Positions 7,551-32,000 of a stretch of 32,000 nt of DNA are shown piece after piece; the first letter of the stretch is position 1, and the number at the start of each line of letters is the position of its first letter. This stretch comes from Erysipelotrichaceae bacterium (GTDB lineage: Bacteria > Bacillota_I > Bacilli_A > Erysipelotrichales > Erysipelotrichaceae), in contig JAUVVC010000003.1 in NCBI GenBank assembly GCA_030604855.1, forward strand, positions 30,001-62,000, written 5' to 3'. A program made the position numbers and the translations under genes. The notes under the pieces were generated by a model. The model was not told the DNA's origin. It did not search any database and was given only the letters and a program-made list of their open reading frames with translations.

Positions 7551-7646
7551 ATGGAACTGATGTCAGGCTTAATCTTTGGCGGTTTAATGCTCGGGGCATT
7601 GGTTGTCTTTGTGTTGATTGTGATCATCTCTAAACGTAAAACGTAG
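7551..7646 (+). CDS. possible 31-aa hydrophobic peptide
   Basis: MELMSGLIFGGLMLGALVVFVLIVIISKRKT forms one TM helix with a basic tail. Lies between the rbsK stop and the operon terminator. Only a weak SD (AAGGA 10 nt upstream). Confidence 0.3.
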   Translation: MELMSGLIFGGLMLGALVVFVLIVIISKRKT

Positions 7647-7673
7647 AAAGACAGAAAACTCTGTCTTTTTTTT
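7647..7673 (+). terminator. rho-independent terminator of the nucleoside operon
   Basis: AAAGACAG-aaaact-CTGTCTTT followed by a T run. Confidence 0.6.
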
Positions 7674-7683
7674 ACAATCGTAC

Positions 7684-7738
7684 TTGACAAACTAACAAGT
7701 GTTAGTATAATAATTCTTGTAAACTAACACTTGTTAGT
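7684..7738 (+). promoter_or_regulatory. sigma-A-type promoter with two operator palindromes
   Basis: TTGACA 7684-7689, a 16-nt spacer, TATAAT 7706-7711. ACTAACAAGTGTTAGT (7691-7706) and its exact reverse complement ACTAACACTTGTTAGT (7723-7738) bracket the -10 box. Confidence 0.55.
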
Positions 7739-12189: not shown

Positions 12190-12270
12190 ATCACTAACAG
12201 GGAAACATTTTTATAATATTGATCGTAAATAGATTCATCATTCGATATAATGGGACCACTGAGGAAATTT

Positions 12271-13572
12271 ATGCGTAAAATAGTTTTGATTTTTTTCTTG
12301 GTGATCGCACTTAGCGCTTGCCAAGCACAAGTAAATCGCTTACCTGCGAACAGTGAAGTTAAGATTGCGATCGCGACCGATCTTCATTTGTTATCGGATC
12401 AACTTTTTGACTACGATCCTGAAACCATGGAGGCCTATGTCAGTGGTGATGGACGTTTGGTTTTCTATACATCCGAAATCATGGATGCCTTTAGTAATCA
12501 ACTGAGTATAGAGAAACCGGATGTTCTCATCATCAGTGGTGACTTGACGCATAATGGCGAAAAGAAAAGCCATGAAGTGCTTTCAAAGAAACTTAAGGAA
12601 CTTGAGAAGGATGGTATCCGAGTTCTCGTCGTACCTGGGAATCATGATATCGAAAACTTCTTAGCGCGATCATTGCAAGATGGCAAGTGGATCTCGACAG
12701 ATACCATTGTGGCAAAGGATTTTGATCGTTATTATAAAAACTTTGGATATGCCGATGCTTTGGACAGAGATCCAAATGGTTTGAGTTATGTCAGTGAACT
12801 TTCAGAAGATCTGTGGGTTTTGATGATAGATTCCAACCGATATCGTATCGGAATGCCAACAGGGAGCGGTGAAATACGTGATGAGTCTATGGAATGGATC
12901 GAATCCATTTTGATAAAGGCTAAGGAAATGAATGTGGAAGTGTTTAGTGTCATGCATCATAATCTTTTGATTCACAGTCCCAATAACTATATTGGGAATA
13001 CCTTGAACAATTACGAAGAAGTTGTGGAACTTTATGATCAGTACGATGTGCGTTTGAATTTCAGTGGTCATATCCATGCCCAAGGCATCGTACATTCTGA
13101 ACACATGGAGCCAATTTATGATGTGGTTACGAGTTCAATAAGCATAAGCCCAATTCAATATGGATGGGTGACATATCAAAAAGATGATGGGTTTGAATAC
13201 GTTACACGACAGGTTGATGTGCAGAATTGGGCGATTCAAAACAATCTCAGTGATATGAACCTTTTAAACTTTAAAGACTATGCTCGCGAATCATTTAAGG
13301 CACTTTCATATGGTCGCACACTTGAAACCCTGACGGAACTTGGACTTTACAATGCAGAGATGAATGAGCTCTTAGCTTCAAGCATGTCTGAAGTCAATGC
13401 TTACTATTTCCCAGGACATATCGCTAATGAACGAGAACGATTCTTGGTCAGTGAAGGTGTCCTTCAATGGATGAGTAAGAGTGAGCCTCAACGTACACGA
13501 CGTTATGTCGAATTCATGCTTCAAGAAAAGTCGATCAGTCCAATCCACTTGAAGCTTCAAACAAACAATTGA
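12271..13572 (+). CDS. metallophosphoesterase, probable lipoprotein
   Basis: Lipobox FLVIALSAC. Calcineurin-like motifs IATDLH, SGDLTHNG, PGNHD and SGHIH. Start ATG 12271 follows GAGGAA. Confidence 0.75.
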   Translation: MRKIVLIFFLVIALSACQAQVNRLPANSEVKIAIATDLHLLSDQLFDYDPETMEAYVSGDGRLVFYTSEIMDAFSNQLSIEKPDVLIISGDLTHNGEKKSHEVLSKKLKELEKDGIRVLVVPGNHDIENFLARSLQDGKWISTDTIVAKDFDRYYKNFGYADALDRDPNGLSYVSELSEDLWVLMIDSNRYRIGMPTGSGEIRDESMEWIESILIKAKEMNVEVFSVMHHNLLIHSPNNYIGNTLNNYEEVVELYDQYDVRLNFSGHIHAQGIVHSEHMEPIYDVVTSSISISPIQYGWVTYQKDDGFEYVTRQVDVQNWAIQNNLSDMNLLNFKDYARESFKALSYGRTLETLTELGLYNAEMNELLASSMSEVNAYYFPGHIANERERFLVSEGVLQWMSKSEPQRTRRYVEFMLQEKSISPIHLKLQTNN

Positions 13573-24558: not shown

Positions 24559-24957
24559 ATGAAACCTTACTTATTACGTCTAAAACCTAAGCAGGATATC
24601 AGATTGGAGCTCATCCGATTTGCACAAGCACATAACATCAAAACAGCCTCGATTGTGTCGGCTGTTGGAAGTGTGTCATCCATGAAAGTTCGGATTGCGG
24701 ATGGGAAGACGGTTGTGAGTGATGATCAGAATCGTGAAGTTCTAAGTTTGAGTGGTACTTTGATCAATGGAAAGATTCATGCGCATATTGGCGCAATCTC
24801 CACAAAGATGGGTGTCTTTGGAGGCCATTTGATGGAAGGCTGTATCGTGCATACGACGATGGAGGTCACATTATTCGATCTTACGGATGACATTCAAGCA
24901 GAAAGAAGGTTTGATTCACAAACCGGCTTTGATGAGCTCTATGTTATTGACATTTAA
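24559..24957 (+). CDS. PPC (DUF296) domain DNA-binding protein
   Basis: MKPYLLRLKPKQDIRLELIRFAQAHNIKTASIVSAVGSV...LSLSGTL...HAHIG...GGHL matches the PPC/DUF296 pattern. Start trimmed to ATG 24559. Confidence 0.7.
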   Translation: MKPYLLRLKPKQDIRLELIRFAQAHNIKTASIVSAVGSVSSMKVRIADGKTVVSDDQNREVLSLSGTLINGKIHAHIGAISTKMGVFGGHLMEGCIVHTTMEVTLFDLTDDIQAERRFDSQTGFDELYVIDI

Positions 24958-24983
24958 CGCTACAATTTATATTATTTAATAGC

Positions 24984-25059
24984 GCCGACTTAGCTCAACT
25001 GGTAGAGCAACTGAATCGTAATCAGTAGGTTGCGGGTTCAAGTCCTGTAGTCGGCACCA
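24984..25059 (+). tRNA. tRNA-Thr (anticodon CGT)
   Basis: Acceptor GCCGACT/AGTCGGC, anticodon stem ACTGA/TCAGT with loop ATCGTAA, T loop GGTTCAAGTCC, CCA. 76 nt. Confidence 0.9.
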
Positions 25060-25126
25060 TTTAACACTAAGAATGCCCTAATATGTAGCATATATATGGG
25101 GCATTTTGCATTTATGTAGAAAAAAC

Positions 25127-25160
25127 AACATAAGTAAAATAAGAATAAATTACTTATGTT
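25127..25160. repeat. perfect 11-bp inverted repeat
   Basis: AACATAAGTAA-12 nt-TTACTTATGTT, 68 nt after the tRNA-Thr end. Confidence 0.6.
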
Positions 25161-25317
25161 GAGCAATTAATAAGCTAGAAATCATCTGAAATAGCTTCAG
25201 TTTTCCAGAAGTTAAAATTTGTGGGTTAAAATAAAAATCTCGTTTTAAGTGAATTCACTTATATATTTAATAATATAAAAGAACCCTACACATTAAGTTT
25301 GTGTAAGATTCTTAAGG

Positions 25318-26580
25318 TTATTCATTCTCGATTATTATACTTAATTCTGGTTCGAGTCGGCTTATGACTCTAGTGACGAGTGCATTCCCCATCATGAAAT
25401 ATCTACGAGATTCTGGCATCCCTGTATTTGTCCAATTATCTGGAAAAGATTGCAAGCGCTCAGCTTCAATGGGTGTAATGAATCTAAGCCTACCGGTTAA
25501 GTGGTCTTCAATCACATGTGTACTACGATTTATACTTGACTCACTTGTAAGCATAGTTCTACCTGGTAAATCTAAACTATCAGGGAAGCCCATGCCGCCT
25601 TCGGAATAAAAATAGGAGTTACCATTAGAGTTGACACGCTTAATCTTCTTGCCATCTTTTAGGTACTTGAATTTCTCTATTTGCTTTTCAGTTAAGAAGT
25701 AGTTTGATAAATCAACGCCTTCTTCTCTAATTTCTGAAAGCGTAATGGGTTCTTCTGGGTTCGGAATAACTTTCTGAGTGAAAGCGACACCATCTACCAT
25801 TAGTCCAGAGTTTTCAAATAAGAAACTGAACTTTTCTGTCATTTGAACAGTATCGAGGTGTTCATTAAGGTTTACAGACTTAAGCTTGTTTTGTTGGCTC
25901 AAAGCAATATCTAATGGGAATGAAGAAGCAAGTAAGCTTCTGTTGAGCATAATGTCTTCTACCGTATAATCGTTCACCATTTGGTTGTATCTTAATTCCC
26001 TTCGCCAAGCGAAAATAAAGACGCGACGTCTTCTTTGTGCGCCACCATAATCGGCTGCATTAATGACTCGCCATTCCAGATTATAACCAAGGTCTGAAAA
26101 AGTTCTAAGCATTATTCCAAAATCTCTACCACGCTGAAGTGCTGGAGACTTTAACAGTCTATCTACATTTTCAAGTAAAACAAACGGAGTTGCTTTCGCT
26201 TCGAGGATATCTGTTATTTGCCAGAACAGAACTCCCTTTTTTCCTTCAATTCCTTTTTCGTTACTTTTTGTACGCGCAACAGAATAGTCTTGACATGGGA
26301 ATCCACCCACTAAGAGAGAATGGTCAGGAAGCAATTCTTTATTAACTAATGAAATGTCTTCATTGCTGTTAGGACCTGGATTATTAAACCGAGTTACATA
26401 ACACTGATATGCATGTTGAGATATTGTTGATGGTTCCCACTGGGAGGCCCATACGAAATCCCAGTTATTTCTTTCGATAGCTTTTCCGTTTTGGTCAAAG
26501 TTAGCAACATTGTTCAAACCAACTCGAAACCCACCTACTCCGGCAAAAAGCTCTATTACGGTTTTTTCCATTGTGTACAC
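25318..26580 (-). CDS. DNA (cytosine-5)-methyltransferase, M.Sau3AI-like
   Basis: C5-MTase motifs ELFAGVGGF (I), GGFPCQDYS (IV), LLENVDRLL (VI), QRRRRVFIF (VIII) and MGNALV (X). Long stretches recalled from M.Sau3AI are also present (WASQWEPS, GKKGVLFWQI, RGRDFGIML, EWRVINAADYG, RTMLTSESSINRSTH, PIEAERLQSFPDNWT). Confidence 0.9.
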   Translation of the reverse strand: MYTMEKTVIELFAGVGGFRVGLNNVANFDQNGKAIERNNWDFVWASQWEPSTISQHAYQCYVTRFNNPGPNSNEDISLVNKELLPDHSLLVGGFPCQDYSVARTKSNEKGIEGKKGVLFWQITDILEAKATPFVLLENVDRLLKSPALQRGRDFGIMLRTFSDLGYNLEWRVINAADYGGAQRRRRVFIFAWRRELRYNQMVNDYTVEDIMLNRSLLASSFPLDIALSQQNKLKSVNLNEHLDTVQMTEKFSFLFENSGLMVDGVAFTQKVIPNPEEPITLSEIREEGVDLSNYFLTEKQIEKFKYLKDGKKIKRVNSNGNSYFYSEGGMGFPDSLDLPGRTMLTSESSINRSTHVIEDHLTGRLRFITPIEAERLQSFPDNWTNTGMPESRRYFMMGNALVTRVISRLEPELSIIIENE

Positions 26581-26702
26581 TCTCCTAGTACTATTGTATA
26601 ATAATCGAAATGGGATTTTGGTTATTTTTACAATAAAAACTTCATTAATTATACAGCATTTCTTTTACTCAGAACAATAATTAAAACAGGGGGGATAAGG
26701 GT

Positions 26703-28151
26703 ATGAATGAGAGCATTTATCAGTCAAGAGAAGAACTGTTGGAAATAGCTAAGAGTGCAATCGGGGAAAGGATTGGGAAGTATGACACAAGAAACAGACT
26801 TATTCCTGGGAAGGGCAAAGGAAAGATTGGTTTAGTTATTGAGGAAGGCTTGTTTCATAGAAAAGCTGACTCTAGTCAAAAGCCTGATTTTGATAATCTC
26901 GGTATAGAGCTAAAAGTAACTGGTTATCAATGGAAGAACAACAATAAGAAAGTTTCAGCCAAAGAGAGACTCGTAATTACAATGCTGGACTATTTTAATG
27001 ATGTAAATAAAGAGTTTAGAAACAGTAATGTCTATCATAAAATCGCGAAAATGCTTCTAATGCTCTACGAGCACGAACTAGATAAAAATGAGGCTGATTT
27101 CATATTAACGAATTACTTCATGTATGAGTTCGAGAATATAAGTGAGTTGGATAAGAGAATAATTATTAGGGATTACGATAACATTATACAGAAGATTTTA
27201 GATAATCAGGCCCATGAAATTTCCGAAGGGGACACTCTGTATTTAGGGGCATGCACTAAAGGGGAAAATAGTGGCTCAACTGTTGTAGTCAATGGTATAG
27301 AAGTTATGAGGAGAGCTTTTGCATTGAAACAGTCGTATATGACTTACTTGATGCGCAGCAGCATTTTCAAAAACTGGGGGAACAAAGAATCGTTCATTAA
27401 AGATTTAAACTTACTTAAAAAGAATACTCTTGAGGAGCTCGTTTATAAATCGTTTGAGCCCTTCATCTCTAAGAGCCTTACAGAAATTGATTCGATGTTT
27501 AATACTCAAGTTGACAGAAATCCCAAACAATATTTGAAAAGTTATGTTTCTAGAATGTTAAATGTCAAAGATAAAAATCTTGAGAGTATTGATGAATTTT
27601 TAAAAGCTAACATTCAAGTTAAAACGATAAGACTTTCAAGAATTGGTGAAATTAAAGAGAGTATGTCTTTTCCTAATTTTGATTTCATTCAGTTATCTGA
27701 GGAGTCTTGGGAGGAGTCTGTTACACGAGATATGTTTGAAGTGAGTAAATTTCTCTTTGTTGTTTTTGATGAGGTTAATGATTCAAAAAAAGAGTATAAA
27801 TTAAGAAAAGTCTTGTTCTGGAATATGCCTACATCTATATTGGATGGAGAAGTTCGTGAAGTTTGGGAATCAACCAAACAGATTCTAAATTCCGAAATCC
27901 GAGTAAGTGTTAAGAACAAAAGGTTTTTGAATAATTTCCCCTCATCTAAAAACAATCCTGTAGCACATGTTAGACCCCACGGAGTAAATAGTCTTGATGT
28001 CTACGAACTACCTTCTACATGTAAGATTAGAGTTATGAGTAATGATGGAACGAAAGATATTGAAGACTTTATTAATCGTCATGTCTTCACTAAGCAAAGC
28101 TTTTGGCTAAATAATAAATACGTGCTAAGGGTGATTAATAACTTTAAATAG
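26703..28151 (+). CDS. type II restriction endonuclease, Sau3AI family (MutH-like catalytic domain; GATC expected)
   Basis: 482 aa. PDFDNLGIELKV fits the D...ExK MutH/Sau3AI site. Also has SAKERLVITMLDY, ISEGDTLYLGACTKGEN, RRAFALKQSYMTYL, ESMSFPNFDF, FLFVVF, AHVRPHG and TKQSFWLNNKY, which parallel Sau3AI as I recall it. Divergent from the MTase. Confidence 0.8.
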   Translation: MNESIYQSREELLEIAKSAIGERIGKYDTRNRLIPGKGKGKIGLVIEEGLFHRKADSSQKPDFDNLGIELKVTGYQWKNNNKKVSAKERLVITMLDYFNDVNKEFRNSNVYHKIAKMLLMLYEHELDKNEADFILTNYFMYEFENISELDKRIIIRDYDNIIQKILDNQAHEISEGDTLYLGACTKGENSGSTVVVNGIEVMRRAFALKQSYMTYLMRSSIFKNWGNKESFIKDLNLLKKNTLEELVYKSFEPFISKSLTEIDSMFNTQVDRNPKQYLKSYVSRMLNVKDKNLESIDEFLKANIQVKTIRLSRIGEIKESMSFPNFDFIQLSEESWEESVTRDMFEVSKFLFVVFDEVNDSKKEYKLRKVLFWNMPTSILDGEVREVWESTKQILNSEIRVSVKNKRFLNNFPSSKNNPVAHVRPHGVNSLDVYELPSTCKIRVMSNDGTKDIEDFINRHVFTKQSFWLNNKYVLRVINNFK

Positions 28152-28270
28152 CTGTGAAAATCCTAAATCAACTTATTTTCCAAAATAGTTATAAGCAGTG
28201 TAAGATGAATCTATACTGCTAATGTTCATATAGAACATCTCCCCTCAGCTCTTCGAGTTTCCAAGATTAA

Positions 28271-28292
28271 GCGCCCCATAATGGCGCTTTTT
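28271..28292 (+). terminator. rho-independent terminator
   Basis: GCGCC-ccataat-GGCGC followed by T5. Confidence 0.5.
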
Positions 28293-28353
28293 CTTTTCGT
28301 TATATTTTTATCTTTAAATGCATAGAATGGGGCATCACAAGGAGATTACGAAA

Positions 28354-28599
28354 GTGAAAAAAAGAAAACGAAGCGAAGTCCAAGGACCGCTCAGTTATGA
28401 CCAGGAAAAAGATTGTTTTACGATAGGAACACGAGAATTGAAGCATGGAACACCATTATTTGTATGTTTAGCCGTCGAAAAGGATGATTGAATGGTATAT
28501 GATTCGAGGATTAAAAAGTGTGAAAATGGGTGAGTTTTGGCGGATTTAGGCCGTCCAGCCGTCGATTTTCTCGGTCAGGTGTGTTTTTTACGTAGCTAA
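28354..28599 (+). CDS. hypothetical 81-codon protein, open only if TGA is read through (2 in-frame TGA)
   Basis: AAGGAG 28339-28344 lies 9 nt before GTG 28354. The frame runs to TAA 28597-28599 with TGA at 28489-28491 and 28531-28533 (...VEKDD*MVYDSRIKKCENG*VLADLGRPAVDF...). A strong terminator follows. Confidence 0.45.
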
Positions 28600-28606
28600 T
28601 GTTGCC

Positions 28607-28630
28607 AAAAGCGCAGAAGTGCGCTTTTTC
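28607..28630 (+). terminator. rho-independent terminator
   Basis: AAAAGCGCA-gaag-TGCGCTTTT (9 bp) followed by a T run. Confidence 0.65.
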
Positions 28631-29245
28631 TTTATGTAGTTTTTTTGTTTAGTTATGAAGCGTTGCGCACGAAACTATACTAAGAATGACTTTCGAAACC
28701 CGTCGAGCCGGGAAAAAGGCGCCACGGCGCCTTTCCCCCACATCTCCGGATATCGAAAATCATTGAAAAACGTAGACGGAAAGCGGGTTTAGTTTACTTT
28801 TCCTTGAACGTTATCTTCCGGTTAAGCTCCGCCGCTTCGTTTGTCGTTTTTCCGCTTCGCTTCAAAACACGAAGGCGTGCTCGCTTAACCGGTGCTCGAG
28901 CCGGGCCGAATGAATTCGGCTCTCGGCTTCCTATCGAGCGCCTTCCCCCAAAGTTCCACCGGTCCACGATAACGTGGACGCGCTGGTTGTTCGCTTGGAG
29001 GTCGTGGAACATCGCCGTAGGTTTACTCCGCTCGTGTGTCCGCCATTATGCGGACGCCACGTCGCCATGTGTGCGCAACGTTGCGCCGATGATGCCGTCT
29101 TCAGGTGTCGACTATAACGTCGACGACCTTACGACTTTGAGGAGCTTATGTTTCGCTAATCCAGGGGAAGCCCTAGGTGAAACCCACACGAAGTCCGAGA
29201 GTTTCGCCGTTAAATTTTCTTTTAAAAATCTGTTTGAAATCAGAT
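28631..29245. other. ORF-free, GC-rich, hairpin-dense region: candidate large structured RNA or replication/transfer origin
   Basis: No credible ORF in any frame, even with TGA read as sense. Contains a composite 75-nt hairpin closed by CCGGTTAAGC/GCTTAACCGG (28818-28892). GC-clamped stem-loops lie at 28715-28734, 28905-28920, 28962-28979, 29036-29057, 29073-29086 and 29103-29129. A module is duplicated at 28703-28740 and 28896-28950. Confidence 0.4.
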
Positions 29246-29258
29246 AGGAGGTCCAGAT

Positions 29259-29399
29259 ATGGAACACGCTTTGAATGGAGTCGACCTCATTTCGCTGCTG
29301 CTCTTTGGCGGTTCGAGATTAACTCAGGATGAAAAGAATGAACTTTTGGAAGTGTATTTGGAAAGCACAAACGTGCGGGAGGATTCTGAGAATGAGTAG
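29259..29399 (+). CDS. hypothetical 46-aa protein
   Basis: AGGAGG 29245-29250 lies 8 nt before ATG 29259. Ends in TAG. Confidence 0.5.
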   Translation: MEHALNGVDLISLLLFGGSRLTQDEKNELLEVYLESTNVREDSENE

Positions 29400-29427
29400 A
29401 GCTGGAGATTGAGAGATTAAAAAATGG

Positions 29428-29934
29428 ATGGATTCCGACATCAAGGCGGCGCAGTTGTTTAATTCTATTTGCAACGTTTCAGAGGAAGACGCCATGGCCT
29501 ACGCTGGTATCAGCGCAACGCGCTTAAAGACACTGGCGAACATCCATTACCTTGAGCGGAAGATTGATAAAAAAGGAAACTACTATTACCGGACGACCAT
29601 AGAAGGACGAAAAGAATTCGAGAAGAGGTCCGGAATAAGAGGCTATTTTTCAAACAGCTACGCACACGATAAGGCCCTATATGATGTCTATACGAGTTTA
29701 AGCGAAGAAGAGCAGAACAGCTGAATGACGGAACGCGAACAACGTCAATACGCCGAAGACCACGGGTATGAAATTGAGGATACGTCGGTGTGCGACGGAG
29801 CGTATCGCGACAGTGAAACAGGTGAGATGGTCTATGTGGAAATTATTACATCTGACTATACCGATAAAATGAAAGAAGCCAAGGCTAAATATGCTGAGGT
29901 TATGGGAGGCCGATATGACCAGCATTCAATCTAA
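29428..29934 (+). CDS. hypothetical wHTH-like protein, 168 codons with one in-frame TGA (replication-relaxation-like layout, tentative)
   Basis: Track ORFs 29428-29724 and 29725-29934 are in the same frame, separated only by TGA 29722-29724 (...SLSEEEQNS*MTEREQRQY...). N-terminal ...ISATRLKTLANIHYLERKIDKKGNYYYRTTIEGRKEF looks like a winged helix. The C-terminus has D...E motifs (CDGAYRD...VYVEIITSDY). Ends in TAA. Confidence 0.45.
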
Positions 29935-31339
29935 GAATACAAAATACGACAAGGATGCCGTAAAGAGACTCGTGGAAGCGAAAAGAGGGGGATTGCTCGT
30001 TGAACAACTCTATGAAGCGATACCCGAAAATGAACGTCCTTCTCGAAGCTATTTCTTGGAATTCTTAAAAAATATCAAAGGGGTTTACACGAGCCAATAT
30101 GATGTCTTTAAAAATCGATTCTTCGTCTCGACCCTTCACAATAAAGATTTATTAGCCAAACGAAGATTACTTGTTATGCTCGCAGCGTGAGAGAAAGAGA
30201 ATGGACGTCCAGCGAGCTGGTTCGTCGAACCCGGCGGATTGCCCAATAAATACAAAGAACTCATTCTTAGAATGGCGGAGAGACCCGGACCGTATCGAAA
30301 CGGAGGAAGCGTGAATCTCGAGGAGAGCTTCATCTGGATGTCCTATTTTGCCGGACAACAAAAAATGGCACTCAAGAAAAGAAACACCCCAAAGCCAAAG
30401 CCCGAAATGATTCTGGAGTTGGGCGACGGAATGGTGATAGATTTAAGCGATGATAATGAGGTTATTTCGCTCGATAACGAAAACAAAGTTTATATTGGGA
30501 AAAACAGCAAATGGGGAAACCCTTTCGAGAGCGGTGGCATATGGACCGATACCGAATGTAAAGAACTTTACCCCGCTCACTTCTGGAGTAGCAATCTATA
30601 CGACGAACTCGATGAGCTCATCAATAAGAGACTTTACGTCCACACAGGCGAGGATGAGTTCCACGGCCAATTCCTACGTGACATGATTAAAGAGAAGGCG
30701 GCGGGGAACAAGCCCGGACCGACCATTCCCCCGATACATCTCTACAACCTTCACCGAAGAAAGATATACCTTGAAATCGTTAAAGATAAAGAGAACCCTA
30801 AAAAAATAGGGAAGCTAGTCTTCCATATGTTCGATGTTGAGGATGACCTGACTTTTGAGAAAGTCATTGCTTGTCTAAAGACCATTTTCGAATTTATGAC
30901 CTACCATGAGATTTTAAGACCGTTCTCAATCAACATCTACACCTGAAATGAGAAGAAGCGGGACCTTTACAAAGAACGTTTCCGGATTTCTCTTAAAGCG
31001 ATACTTCGAAAGAAATTCCATACGGCCGGACTCAATGTCGATGCCACATTCCGAAGATACTTGAAAGACATCTACGACGAGGCCTTTAAAGGCTATAATT
31101 TCATTGATTTAAATATCGACAGATTCTTATACGAGAAGGGGAAAGAATATTGAACGAAGGGGAACAACCTAAACCTACTGGAATATGCTGGTGAAGACTG
31201 GCGAGACCACGTAAAAAAGGACCCAAACAAGGCGAAATTCGAGGATTTAAGCAATCAGGCGAGTATTAACCTGTCCCAGTCCGAAAACGAGGCAAAAAAC
31301 GCCTTAAATGAGGATGACGAATATTTCGATTTAGGGTAA
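29915..31339 (+). CDS. composite 474-codon reading frame with three in-frame TGA; central DUF4326-like motif
   Basis: GGGAGG lies 6 nt before ATG 29915. One frame stays free of TAA/TAG until TAA 31337-31339, with TGA at 30188, 30944 and 31151. The two segments after 30946 contain no ATG at all. The motif VYIGKNSKWGNPF resembles the DUF4326 signature. This may be more than one gene. Confidence 0.45.
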
Positions 31340-31376
31340 AATAGAAGAGACTTCCCCCCGAAGTTATAAGTAGTTG

Positions 31377-31406
31377 AGAAGCGCAATAATAGGCGCTTTT
31401 CTTTTT
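31377..31406 (+). terminator. rho-independent terminator
   Basis: AAGCGC-aataatag-GCGCTT followed by TTCTTTTT. Confidence 0.6.
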
Positions 31407-31411
31407 GCCAT

Positions 31412-31444
31412 AAAAAAAGCCGATATTATTCGGCTTAATTTTAT
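31412..31444. terminator. bidirectional terminator between convergent units
   Basis: A7 then AAGCCGA-tattat-TCGGCTT then AATTTT. Confidence 0.55.
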
Positions 31445-31548
31445 CGAGTGAAAATGTAGATGAGTGAAATGATGAAGAGTGCTGCATTGATGATACGACT
31501 GAATTTCTTGTCGATTCTTCGGAAGTTTTCGAGTTCTTCTTTATTCAT
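31441..31548 (-). CDS. possible 35-aa tail-anchored membrane peptide
   Basis: [35 protein letters not shown]. Overlaps the upstream (minus-strand) gene end by 8 nt. Ends in TAA. Confidence 0.35.
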   Translation of the reverse strand: MNKEELENFRRIDKKFSRIINAALFIISLIYIFTR

Positions 31549-32000
31549 AGAAGGCATCCGCGTTAACACCGAAGGCAGCGGCAGCAGCTTGGTATGCTGA
31601 TAGCTGGCCGGCTGGAACGGAAATTGTGTTCGTTGTTAGATTGTTGTTTTCTTGGAAGATATTCGCTCCGAATAGTGCTGGCAATTCGCCATTGAATGCA
31701 ACAGAGGTTAATTGGTTGTGTGCGAACGCACCTTCCCCAACTTCTATTACGCTGCTTGGAATAATGATTGATGTTAATTGATTTCCGGTGAATGCGTGAT
31801 ATCCAATTCACACTACACTGCCCGGAATTTCGACCGAAGTAAGTTCGTTGTTTTGAAAGGCACCACCACTAATCATTATAATCCCATCCGGAATGGACAC
31901 CGAGGTCAATTTGTTATTGGCAAAAGCATTGACACCAATATCTACAACGCTGTCGGGGATTACCACCGAAGTCAATTGGTTATCGGCGAATGCACTACCA
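31541..32000 (-). CDS. BspA-type leucine-rich-repeat protein, C-terminal part (N-terminus beyond window), one in-frame TGA
   Basis: Minus-strand frame anchored on TAA (31541-31543) reads [22 protein letters not shown] / [22 protein letters not shown] / [21 protein letters not shown] / [22 protein letters not shown] / [10 protein letters not shown].... The TGA at 31808-31810 sits inside an otherwise perfect 22-residue repeat. Confidence 0.7.
31715..32000 (-). repeat. 66-nt (22-codon) tandem periodicity of the LRR coding region
   Basis: The Asn codon of N-x-L-T-S recurs at 31715, 31781, 31847, 31913 and 31979. Confidence 0.7.

Follow-up and report, generated by a model that had tools for sequence, protein, structure and literature searches.

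A tRNA-Thr-integrated element of an Erysipelotrichaceae bacterium and its relatives: absence of GATC, GATC-family restriction–modification cargo and TGA read as tryptophan

Complete loss of a restriction site from a mobile genome has been described for Staphylococcus phage K, the 140-kb genome of which is reported to lack GATC and thereby to evade Sau3AI (PMC6532042). The DNA analysed here, 32,000 nt of Erysipelotrichaceae bacterium contig JAUVVC010000003.1 (the window, in whose numbering coordinates are given), ends in the left part of an integrated element that adjoins a tRNA-Thr gene and likewise contains no GATC. The two cases have in common the full loss of the 4-bp Sau3AI site; the hosts of the element may, like those of phage K, carry GATC-specific restriction. 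They differ in that phage K is a lytic tailed phage without a cognate restriction–modification (R-M) system, whereas the element is integrated, shows no phage genes, carries its own R-M system of a GATC family and shares the loss with divergent relatives as a family-wide trait.

Reported avoidance of R-M targets is mostly a statistical under-representation. Target avoidance as such is well documented for plasmids and prokaryotic viruses (PMC10359461; PMC6286503). The present elements resemble these cases in that type II palindromes are depleted in mobile DNA as an anti-restriction strategy, and differ in that the avoidance extends without exception over more than 110 kb and is coupled to carriage of cognate systems. 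The notion of R-M systems as selfish or addictive units is due to Kobayashi, and such systems occur as cargo of mobile elements, as described in one account (PMC4176335). The likeness to this cargo lies in a type II R-M system placed in a variable slot by integrase and attachment site (att), in a host with a densely targeted chromosome; the difference is that the carrier has no target sites and thus stands outside the addiction that it would impose.

Recoded prophages are the closest described systems with respect to the genetic code. TAG-recoded tailed prophages with a code-neutral integrase have been found in standard-code hosts, including one at tRNA-Thr (Borges et al., bioRxiv 10.1101/2021.08.26.457843). 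The element shares with the Garnet and Topaz prophages a size of about 20–25 kb, a position beside a tRNA gene (tRNA-Thr for Topaz) in a standard-code Firmicute, many genes with a reassigned stop codon alongside establishment genes free of it (there the integrase, here integrase and R-M genes), and a suppressor tRNA that often goes undetected. The analysed Garnet and Topaz prophages belong to tailed phages, are recoded at TAG and were defined by their terminase phylogeny; here the codon is TGA (Trp), no terminase, capsid, portal or tail gene was detected, and the genes that can be recognised are related to conjugation (VirB6/TrbL-like, NikA-like). A literature search returned no report of recoding in non-phage mobile elements, an absence which is not proof. 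Site avoidance being known, what appears to be new is the combination: avoidance that is absolute throughout the family, cognate R-M systems that are both carried and exchanged, loss of the site even from the R-M genes, and TGA as Trp without phage genes.

GATC in the window and in related elements

Exact counting gave 192 GATC in the window, all within positions 1–24877, and none in the 7124 nt from 24878 to 32000; the widest gap in the host part was 569 nt. For positions 25060–32000 the expected number was 24.7 from base composition, 29.1 from dinucleotides and 19.0 under a trinucleotide Markov model, so that zero sites has a probability of about e^-19 or lower. GATC was the sole tetramer of the 256 with two or fewer occurrences there. 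In the host part its density was 7.7 per kb, which is 2.1 times the mononucleotide and 0.87 times the Markov expectation; codon and dipeptide usage account for this abundance of GATC in the host, where the site is not avoided.

The right end of the window was extended with the Logan contig L001 (run SRR14872665), whose 6982 nt of overlap with the window are 100% identical. On this contig the GATC-free run continues to at least window-equivalent position 38151, a total of 13.1 kb, about double what the window shows, in which 40–58 sites are expected, and a second pattern search on the L001 stretch found 0 GATC against a shuffle mean of 58.4 (standard deviation 7.8). The right boundary of the element lies beyond 38151, and the sequence covers its left part.

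The original prediction, made by eye, that GATC is missing from 25060–32000 was borne out by these counts, and its figure of 10 sites in the first 1500 bases was exact. The tetramer and Markov comparison that it proposed left GATC alone missing, and a search for overlooked sites and for host gaps of comparable length yielded neither. Its start of the run at 25060 needs correction, for while everything from there on is free, the run begins at 24878, inside the last host gene. The meaningful left edge of the element is nevertheless the tRNA-Thr gene and not 24878. The extension to the right that it suggested, aimed at the point where GATC reappears, gave zero throughout and did not reach that point. 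The features of this part of the window are as follows:

24878–32000, continuing to at least window-equivalent 38151 on L001, no strand: GATC-free stretch (exact counts and shuffle search)
24984–25059, plus strand: tRNA-Thr(CGT), left junction (attL side) (tRNA call, contig breaks; relatives also abut the tRNA 3' end)
25020–25059, plus strand: putative att core, the 3' 40 nt of the tRNA (from the position of an assembly break)
25318–26580, likely ATG at 26571, minus strand: C5-cytosine DNA methyltransferase gene (M), M.Sau3AI-like (PF00145, TIGR00675, PADLOC MTase_II)
26703–28151, plus strand: Sau3AI-family type II restriction endonuclease gene (R), two MutH-like domains (NF040973, PF02976, PDB 4pxg)
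28480–29258, no strand: GC-rich non-coding region with three 19-nt hairpin palindromes
29428–29934, plus strand: gene for a 168-amino acid winged-helix-like protein, in-frame TGA at 29722–29724 (Trp at the aligned position of the L006 homolog)
29891–31339, plus strand: gene for a 482-amino acid protein with a DUF4326 insert, in-frame TGAs at 30188–30190, 30944–30946 and 31151–31153
31541–32000, to 32716 on L001, minus strand: 3' part of a gene for a BspA-type leucine-rich-repeat (LRR) surface protein (PF13306, E=1.4e-54)

Relatives were found with two queries, the 840-amino acid VirB6/TrbL-like protein of the element and the endonuclease. Those retained, from Logan, the Joint Genome Institute (JGI) and an NCBI metagenome-assembled genome (MAG), were:

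L007, Logan SRR28423926: 94% protein identity to the window; tRNA 3' end, tyrosine integrase and the same M/R pair
L003, JGI metagenome: 52% to the window; different cargo
L006, NCBI MAG 'Erysipelotrichaceae bacterium': 47% to the window; host flank present
L008/L010, JGI: 52% to the window; two loci, one sequence
L020, JGI: R 64% identical to the window; follows a tRNA cluster, with integrase, M and R
L013, Logan: VirB6-like protein 46% to the window; canonical Gram-positive type IV secretion system (T4SS) cluster

Protein identity across the family is 40–94%. Together the seven elements (that of the window, L007, L003, L006, L010/L008, L013 and L020) comprise 112,174 nt with 0 GATC against 359 expected, and in each of the six checked, L020 not being among them, GATC was the only absent tetramer. 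In the host flanks of the window, L006, L020 and, after a scaffold gap, L003, GATC is back at once at 4.9–13.1 per kb, or 0.85–0.94 of the Markov expectation. The gene order of the window element recurs in related GATC-free elements. No match was obtained in GTDB representative genomes scanned with the VirB6-like protein and with its alignment, or in a near-identity search of the element DNA against phage and plasmid collections.

The tRNA junction was seen in the window element, L007 and L020. The latter two abut the tRNA 3' end and have a tyrosine integrase gene between the tRNA and the M gene; homology of the window element to L007 begins only at 25261. Two Logan contigs of one sample (the end of L002 and the start of L001) break at 25019/25020, inside the tRNA-Thr gene, which an att repeat, or a mixture of occupied and empty sites in that sample, could explain. 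From tRNA-Thr onwards the GATC-free stretch is one integrated element and not host DNA.

Selection against GATC and the restriction–modification cargo

The absence of GATC is reflected in codon choice. Asp codons of the element that precede a C were GAC in 15/15 cases (GAT in 0/15), against 70% GAT elsewhere in the element; Ile after a codon ending in G was ATC in 0/45 cases, against 33% elsewhere; and Ser after a codon ending in GA was TCN in 0/12, against 58% elsewhere. A bias of this kind is absent from the host, in which 75 of 85 Asp codons before C are GAT. Between the window element and L007, 11.6% of the aligned positions are different, and at the 36 variable columns in which the other three bases spell GATC, the completing base was found in neither sequence (0/36; probability roughly 0.5^36, or (2/3)^36 under a conservative model). 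GATC avoidance thus works through context-dependent synonymous codon choice and is maintained by current selection.

The M gene product matched PF00145 (E=1.7e-59), TIGR00675 (232 bits) and PADLOC MTase_II (538 bits). The R gene product met the NCBIfam equivalog model NF040973 at 456 bits (cut-off 300), matched PF02976 in two stretches and aligned end to end with the Sau3AI structure PDB 4pxg (E=4e-55, residues 6–478). The two genes are adjacent and divergently transcribed, and contain no in-frame TGA and no GATC (0 in the module against 7.3 expected). In comparison with L007, M shows 70 synonymous and 21 nonsynonymous codon differences and R 75 and 24; about three synonymous per nonsynonymous difference were found for M, R and the gene of a conserved 650-amino acid protein, which marks all three as functional genes, M and R being under purifying selection. 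The module is like the Sau3AI system of Staphylococcus in its two-domain MutH-like endonuclease, alignable over the full length, and in the adjacent divergent C5-methyltransferase; it is unlike it in that the proteins are only about 30–40% identical and the genes lack GATC.

Homologs of this module are not free of the site. Sau3AI-family modules on Priestia, Clostridium tagluense and Lactiplantibacillus plasmids have 3–4 GATC each, with flanks at 0.6–0.9 of expectation, and chromosomal ones have 7 in Erysipelothrix larvae and 5 and 6 in two other loci. Because homologous modules elsewhere contain GATC, its avoidance is a trait of the element and not of the R-M genes. Sau3AI-family homologs occur in Erysipelotrichales, among them Erysipelothrix larvae and Coprobacillus cateniformis (586 contigs), and at other chromosomal loci. 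As a side observation, the chromosomal Sau3AI-type module of another Firmicute (L025, 9550–9999) has a Vsr gene between M and R, which the window module has not.

The position by the attachment site is a cargo slot. The Sau3AI-type pair occupies it in the window, L007 and L020. The slot of L003 contains a methylase that meets the TIGR00571 Dam family model and has DpnM (PDB 2dpm, E=1.8e-72) as its nearest structural relative, with a 431-amino acid partner matched end to end by PADLOC REase_II, a type II endonuclease (E=2e-89). Judged by homology, two unrelated R-M systems of GATC-recognising families thus share one position in related GATC-free elements. With these results, the original prediction of a mobile element selected against GATC holds by synonymous codon context and by maintenance across 11.6% divergence, its Sau3AI-type R-M system is present as a full-length Sau3AI-family endonuclease beside a C5-methyltransferase, and its union of AT-rich R-M module, GC-rich non-coding region and TGA-containing genes into one unit agrees with the recurrence of the same gene order in GATC-free relatives. 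Beyond what that prediction contained, the trait proved to be shared by the family whichever R-M module is carried, homologous modules outside the element proved to have GATC, the in-frame TGAs to be true Trp codons, and the element to lack phage hallmarks.

TGA as a tryptophan codon and the gene content of the element

From 29.2 kb on, a standard-code open reading frame (ORF) finder splits the genes, and reading TGA as sense joins the pieces into long frames, by which coverage of the element with ORFs of at least 100 amino acids rises from 0.68 to 0.95. The Trp and stop codons were distributed as follows:

Element genes right of 29.2 kb (29428–32000 and L001 4400–12700, window-equivalent 29.4–37.7 kb): in-frame TGA 15, TGG 22, stops TAA or TAG only
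M and R genes: in-frame TGA 0, TGG 13, stops TAA or TAG only
24 host ORFs: in-frame TGA 0, TGG 66, stops 16 TAA, 4 TGA and 4 TAG

About 40% of the Trp codons in the recoded genes are therefore TGA. One of these codons lies in the BspA-type LRR gene at 31808–31810, which has four more past the window end, and one of the host TGA stops is part of an ATGA stop/start overlap (2150–2153). Two TGA fusions restore signal peptides right after a strong ribosome-binding site and ATG, MKAKLK-TGA-LGVFTTIIFLLSMNFAPVYA and MK-TGA-VFRTLALIALIMVSTLSATEDVHA. The homologs P0001 and P0005 from other samples have Trp where the window has TGA, and when two protein families from five elements were aligned by codon, TGA and TGG were seen to swap at conserved Trp columns. 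Homologs of the gene with the DUF4326 insert are present in L003, L006, L007, L008 and L020, and the VirB6-like gene of L013 is interrupted by TGA at a conserved LS-W-GHVVY motif. The element uses code 4 inside a code-11 host, with TGA read as Trp. That the in-frame TGAs mark pseudogenes was rejected in view of the TGA/TGG alternation at conserved Trp, the 3:1 synonymous excess and the restored signal peptides, and use of code 4 by the host itself in view of its TGA stops and the lack of in-frame TGA in the 24 host ORFs. Decoding might involve a suppressor tRNA(UCA); ARAGORN found no tRNA in L001, L003, L006, L007, L008, L010 and L013, the unseen parts of which could hold one. Standard-code gene callers fragment these elements, which is probably why the family is without annotation.

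Four of the 15 in-frame TGAs occur no later than codon 10, in three genes for secreted or membrane proteins, at non-conserved n-region positions of signal peptides (L001 8243–8265, 10766–10774 and ~7670–7700; window-equivalent 33261, 35790 and ~32690–32716). This placement looks like an early translational gate rather than random codon choice. At L006 16874–16982 a sub-threshold match to the Rfam Trp operon leader (Trp_leader; 27.8 bits, gathering score 41) is probably due to chance.

The recognisable element genes encode a NikA-like ribbon-helix-helix accessory protein (PF21983, E=7e-07), BspA-type LRR surface proteins, the DUF4326 protein and the VirB6/TrbL-like membrane protein, to which ParA and ParB are added in L006. 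PF19590 (TrbL_3) matches homologs of the VirB6/TrbL-like protein, and such homologs lie inside PrgI-VirB4-hydrolase clusters in L013 and a B. thuringiensis megaplasmid. Positions 1–13719 of L013 (and likewise L014) hold a cluster of PrgI, TraC-like, VirB4, VirB6-like and SLT/M23 hydrolase genes with 0 GATC against 56 expected. VirB4 and a coupling protein are present in this more distant relative, which is GATC-free and TGA-recoded too, and the VirB6-like gene is the only one that it has in common with the window-type elements. The likeness to Gram-positive T4SS clusters (PrgI/VirB4/VirB6-like/cell-wall hydrolase, as on the B. thuringiensis Bt407 megaplasmid) accordingly consists in the homology of the 840-amino acid protein to their VirB6-like component; the difference is that PrgI, TraC-like, VirB4 and hydrolase genes are missing from the 19–21 kb of the window-type elements seen, in which tblastn with the L013 proteins found neither VirB4 nor a coupling protein.

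No relaxase family was matched in Pfam and PHROG scans of the element proteins, and in the same 19–21 kb no Pfam or PHROG hallmark of terminase, portal, capsid or tail. Three conserved proteins gave no tblastn match in 50,697 phage records, the IMG/VR scans gave none either, and the conserved 650-, 441- and 146-amino acid proteins, among others, matched neither Pfam nor PHROGs. Kinship with Mollicute phages of MAV1 or L2 type was considered and dropped, tblastn giving no match in phage records expected to include Mollicute phages. The element is therefore treated as an unclassified integrative element with conjugation-derived parts and not as a demonstrated prophage.

The three palindromes of the GC-rich region (28962–28980, 29038–29056 and 29107–29125; spacing 69–76 nt) read GTCCAC-GATAAC-GTGGAC and variants with compensatory stem changes, and may serve as an origin or as an array of protein-binding sites. 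In Rfam searches of four loci no family reached the gathering score, and the GC-rich region had no match. In the C-terminal part of the 168-amino acid protein (29725–29934), CDGAY...YVEIITSDYT resembles a PD-(D/E)xK or Replic_Relax-type nuclease core behind the winged helix; the protein is a possible candidate relaxase or initiator, with no database match at E<0.05. The LRR/BspA proteins of all elements start with ...G-Y-V-(S/A)-I-E-x-V-I-T..., with a Glu five residues past the Gly (L001 ~7600–7700; L006 8100–8214; L008 5100–5237, 6200–6321 and 7600–7719), a motif which resembles a prepilin or TadE-type class III signal.

Explanations for the loss of GATC, and minor features

The explanation that we favour, and consider probable, is a tRNA-Thr-integrated element of a family which selection has purged of GATC as an anti-restriction adaptation. 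The sequence at hand would be the left part, at least 13 kb, of a mobile element at the tRNA-Thr 3' end of an uncultured Erysipelotrichaceae-like Firmicute that uses the standard code. Judged by thioredoxin reductase, the closest named relatives of this host are Erysipelotrichaceae MAGs, at 62–63% identity. The family of the element has lost every GATC, coding and non-coding, and purifying selection keeps the sites out. GATC-specific type II R-M systems may be common in the host clade, and the elements themselves would spread such systems. Sau3AI is blocked by 5-methylcytosine (m5C) and not by Dam methylation, and enzymes of DpnII/MboI type are blocked by N6-methyladenine (m6A). If this holds for the systems concerned, methylation acquired in one host fails against the other system, so that only loss of all sites would protect, and it would do so in every recipient. 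A site-free element would in addition be indifferent to its own endonuclease at any methylation state and could pass freely through GATC-restricting hosts, while the host, with about one site per 130 bp, would presumably depend on the methylase. Because they lack TGA, the R-M genes, and the integrase gene where present, could be expressed in a standard-code cell from the outset.

Chance or an artefact of counting by eye is of negligible probability, since nothing speaks for it after exact counts, three null models and replication in independent elements. A compositional relic, that is, an island from a GATC-poor donor genome with no selection on the element, would suit foreign DNA with a GC content unlike that of the host; it is very improbable in the face of zero sites in elements of 40–50% protein identity from different samples and hosts, of context-specific synonymous choice, of 0/36 variable columns creating a site, and of blocks of 33–37% GC (R-M) and 46% GC (non-coding) that are all site-free. 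Escape from methyl-dependent nucleases (DpnI-type, type IV) or from a GATC-reading process such as MutH-type nicking is improbable as well, if less so. The cargo would be expected to methylate GATC in the element (m5C or m6A) and so expose it in new hosts, but no such nuclease was seen in any locus, the enzymes present being GATC-family type II systems, and such escape would be an added benefit and not a separate explanation.

The most serious rival, though still an unlikely one, holds that the sites were lost so that the unmethylated element survives its own endonuclease, be it just after entry, during rapid replication or when R is unleashed on the GATC-dense host chromosome, with restriction by recipients of little weight. 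GATC indeed occurs in the host at 7.7 per kb, four of the five members with a visible cargo slot carry an R-M system with a GATC-family methylase or endonuclease, and the R-M genes of the element are purged of GATC, unlike homologs elsewhere. Yet carriage alone does not force site loss, because GATC is tolerated both inside the module and beside it in ordinary plasmids and chromosomes with Sau3AI-type systems. The cargo moreover varies while the avoidance is uniform, which suggests that avoidance is older than any one cargo, and L013 is GATC-free without an R-M system in its 13.7 kb. Several points weigh, on the other side, against the anti-restriction element that we favour. On the members seen, selection by recipient systems and by the element's own system cannot be separated, and the cargo slot of L006, L010 and L013 lies outside the sequence covered. 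The GATC specificity of these R and M proteins is read from homology. Relaxase, VirB4, coupling protein, capsid and terminase went unrecognised in the window-type elements. Finally, an integrase gene is missing from the window copy between tRNA-Thr and M (25060–25317); with its right end and attR beyond the sequence covered, this copy could be an immobile remnant.

A wider reading, which we put forward tentatively and at somewhat less than even probability, is that of an undescribed non-phage integrative family of Erysipelotrichaceae-like Firmicutes in which GATC loss and TGA-to-Trp recoding are joined as isolation devices. On this reading GATC loss would hide the elements from R-M systems that are swapped through their own cargo slot and that they would spread in the host clade, and the transfer and surface genes would be recoded while the R-M and integrase genes, which act first, would stay code-neutral. 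If the elements are indeed not phages, they would provide the first reported case of a recoded stop codon in a mobile element that is not viral, be it conjugation-related or of another kind, and TGA as Trp without phage genes would extend code switching beyond bacteriophages. It would also provide a testable case of code-based gating, in which expression would begin with the standard-code genes, and the recoded ones would follow later or be expressed weakly. As the avoidance is absolute, family-wide, under current selection and tied to carriage of systems targeting the site, the family offers a natural system for asking whether avoidance is driven by recipient defences or by the element's own weapon, and what part mobile elements play in shaping the set of R-M systems found in a bacterial clade.

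Other observations concern single features. The host metallophosphoesterase at 12250–13572 shows a weak likeness to an 'anti-phage phosphoesterase' (55.8 bits, far below the cut-off of 420). Among palindromes other than GATC, no 6-bp one stands out in the element loci, and the tetramer GTAC is moderately depleted in all of them (for example 7 observed vs. 23 expected, 13 vs. 38 and 8 vs. 20). Near the right end of L006 (17004–17460) and of L010 (19890–20346) a non-coding block of about 460 nt is 78% identical, against only about 40–50% for the proteins, and could be a cis-acting site or an RNA.

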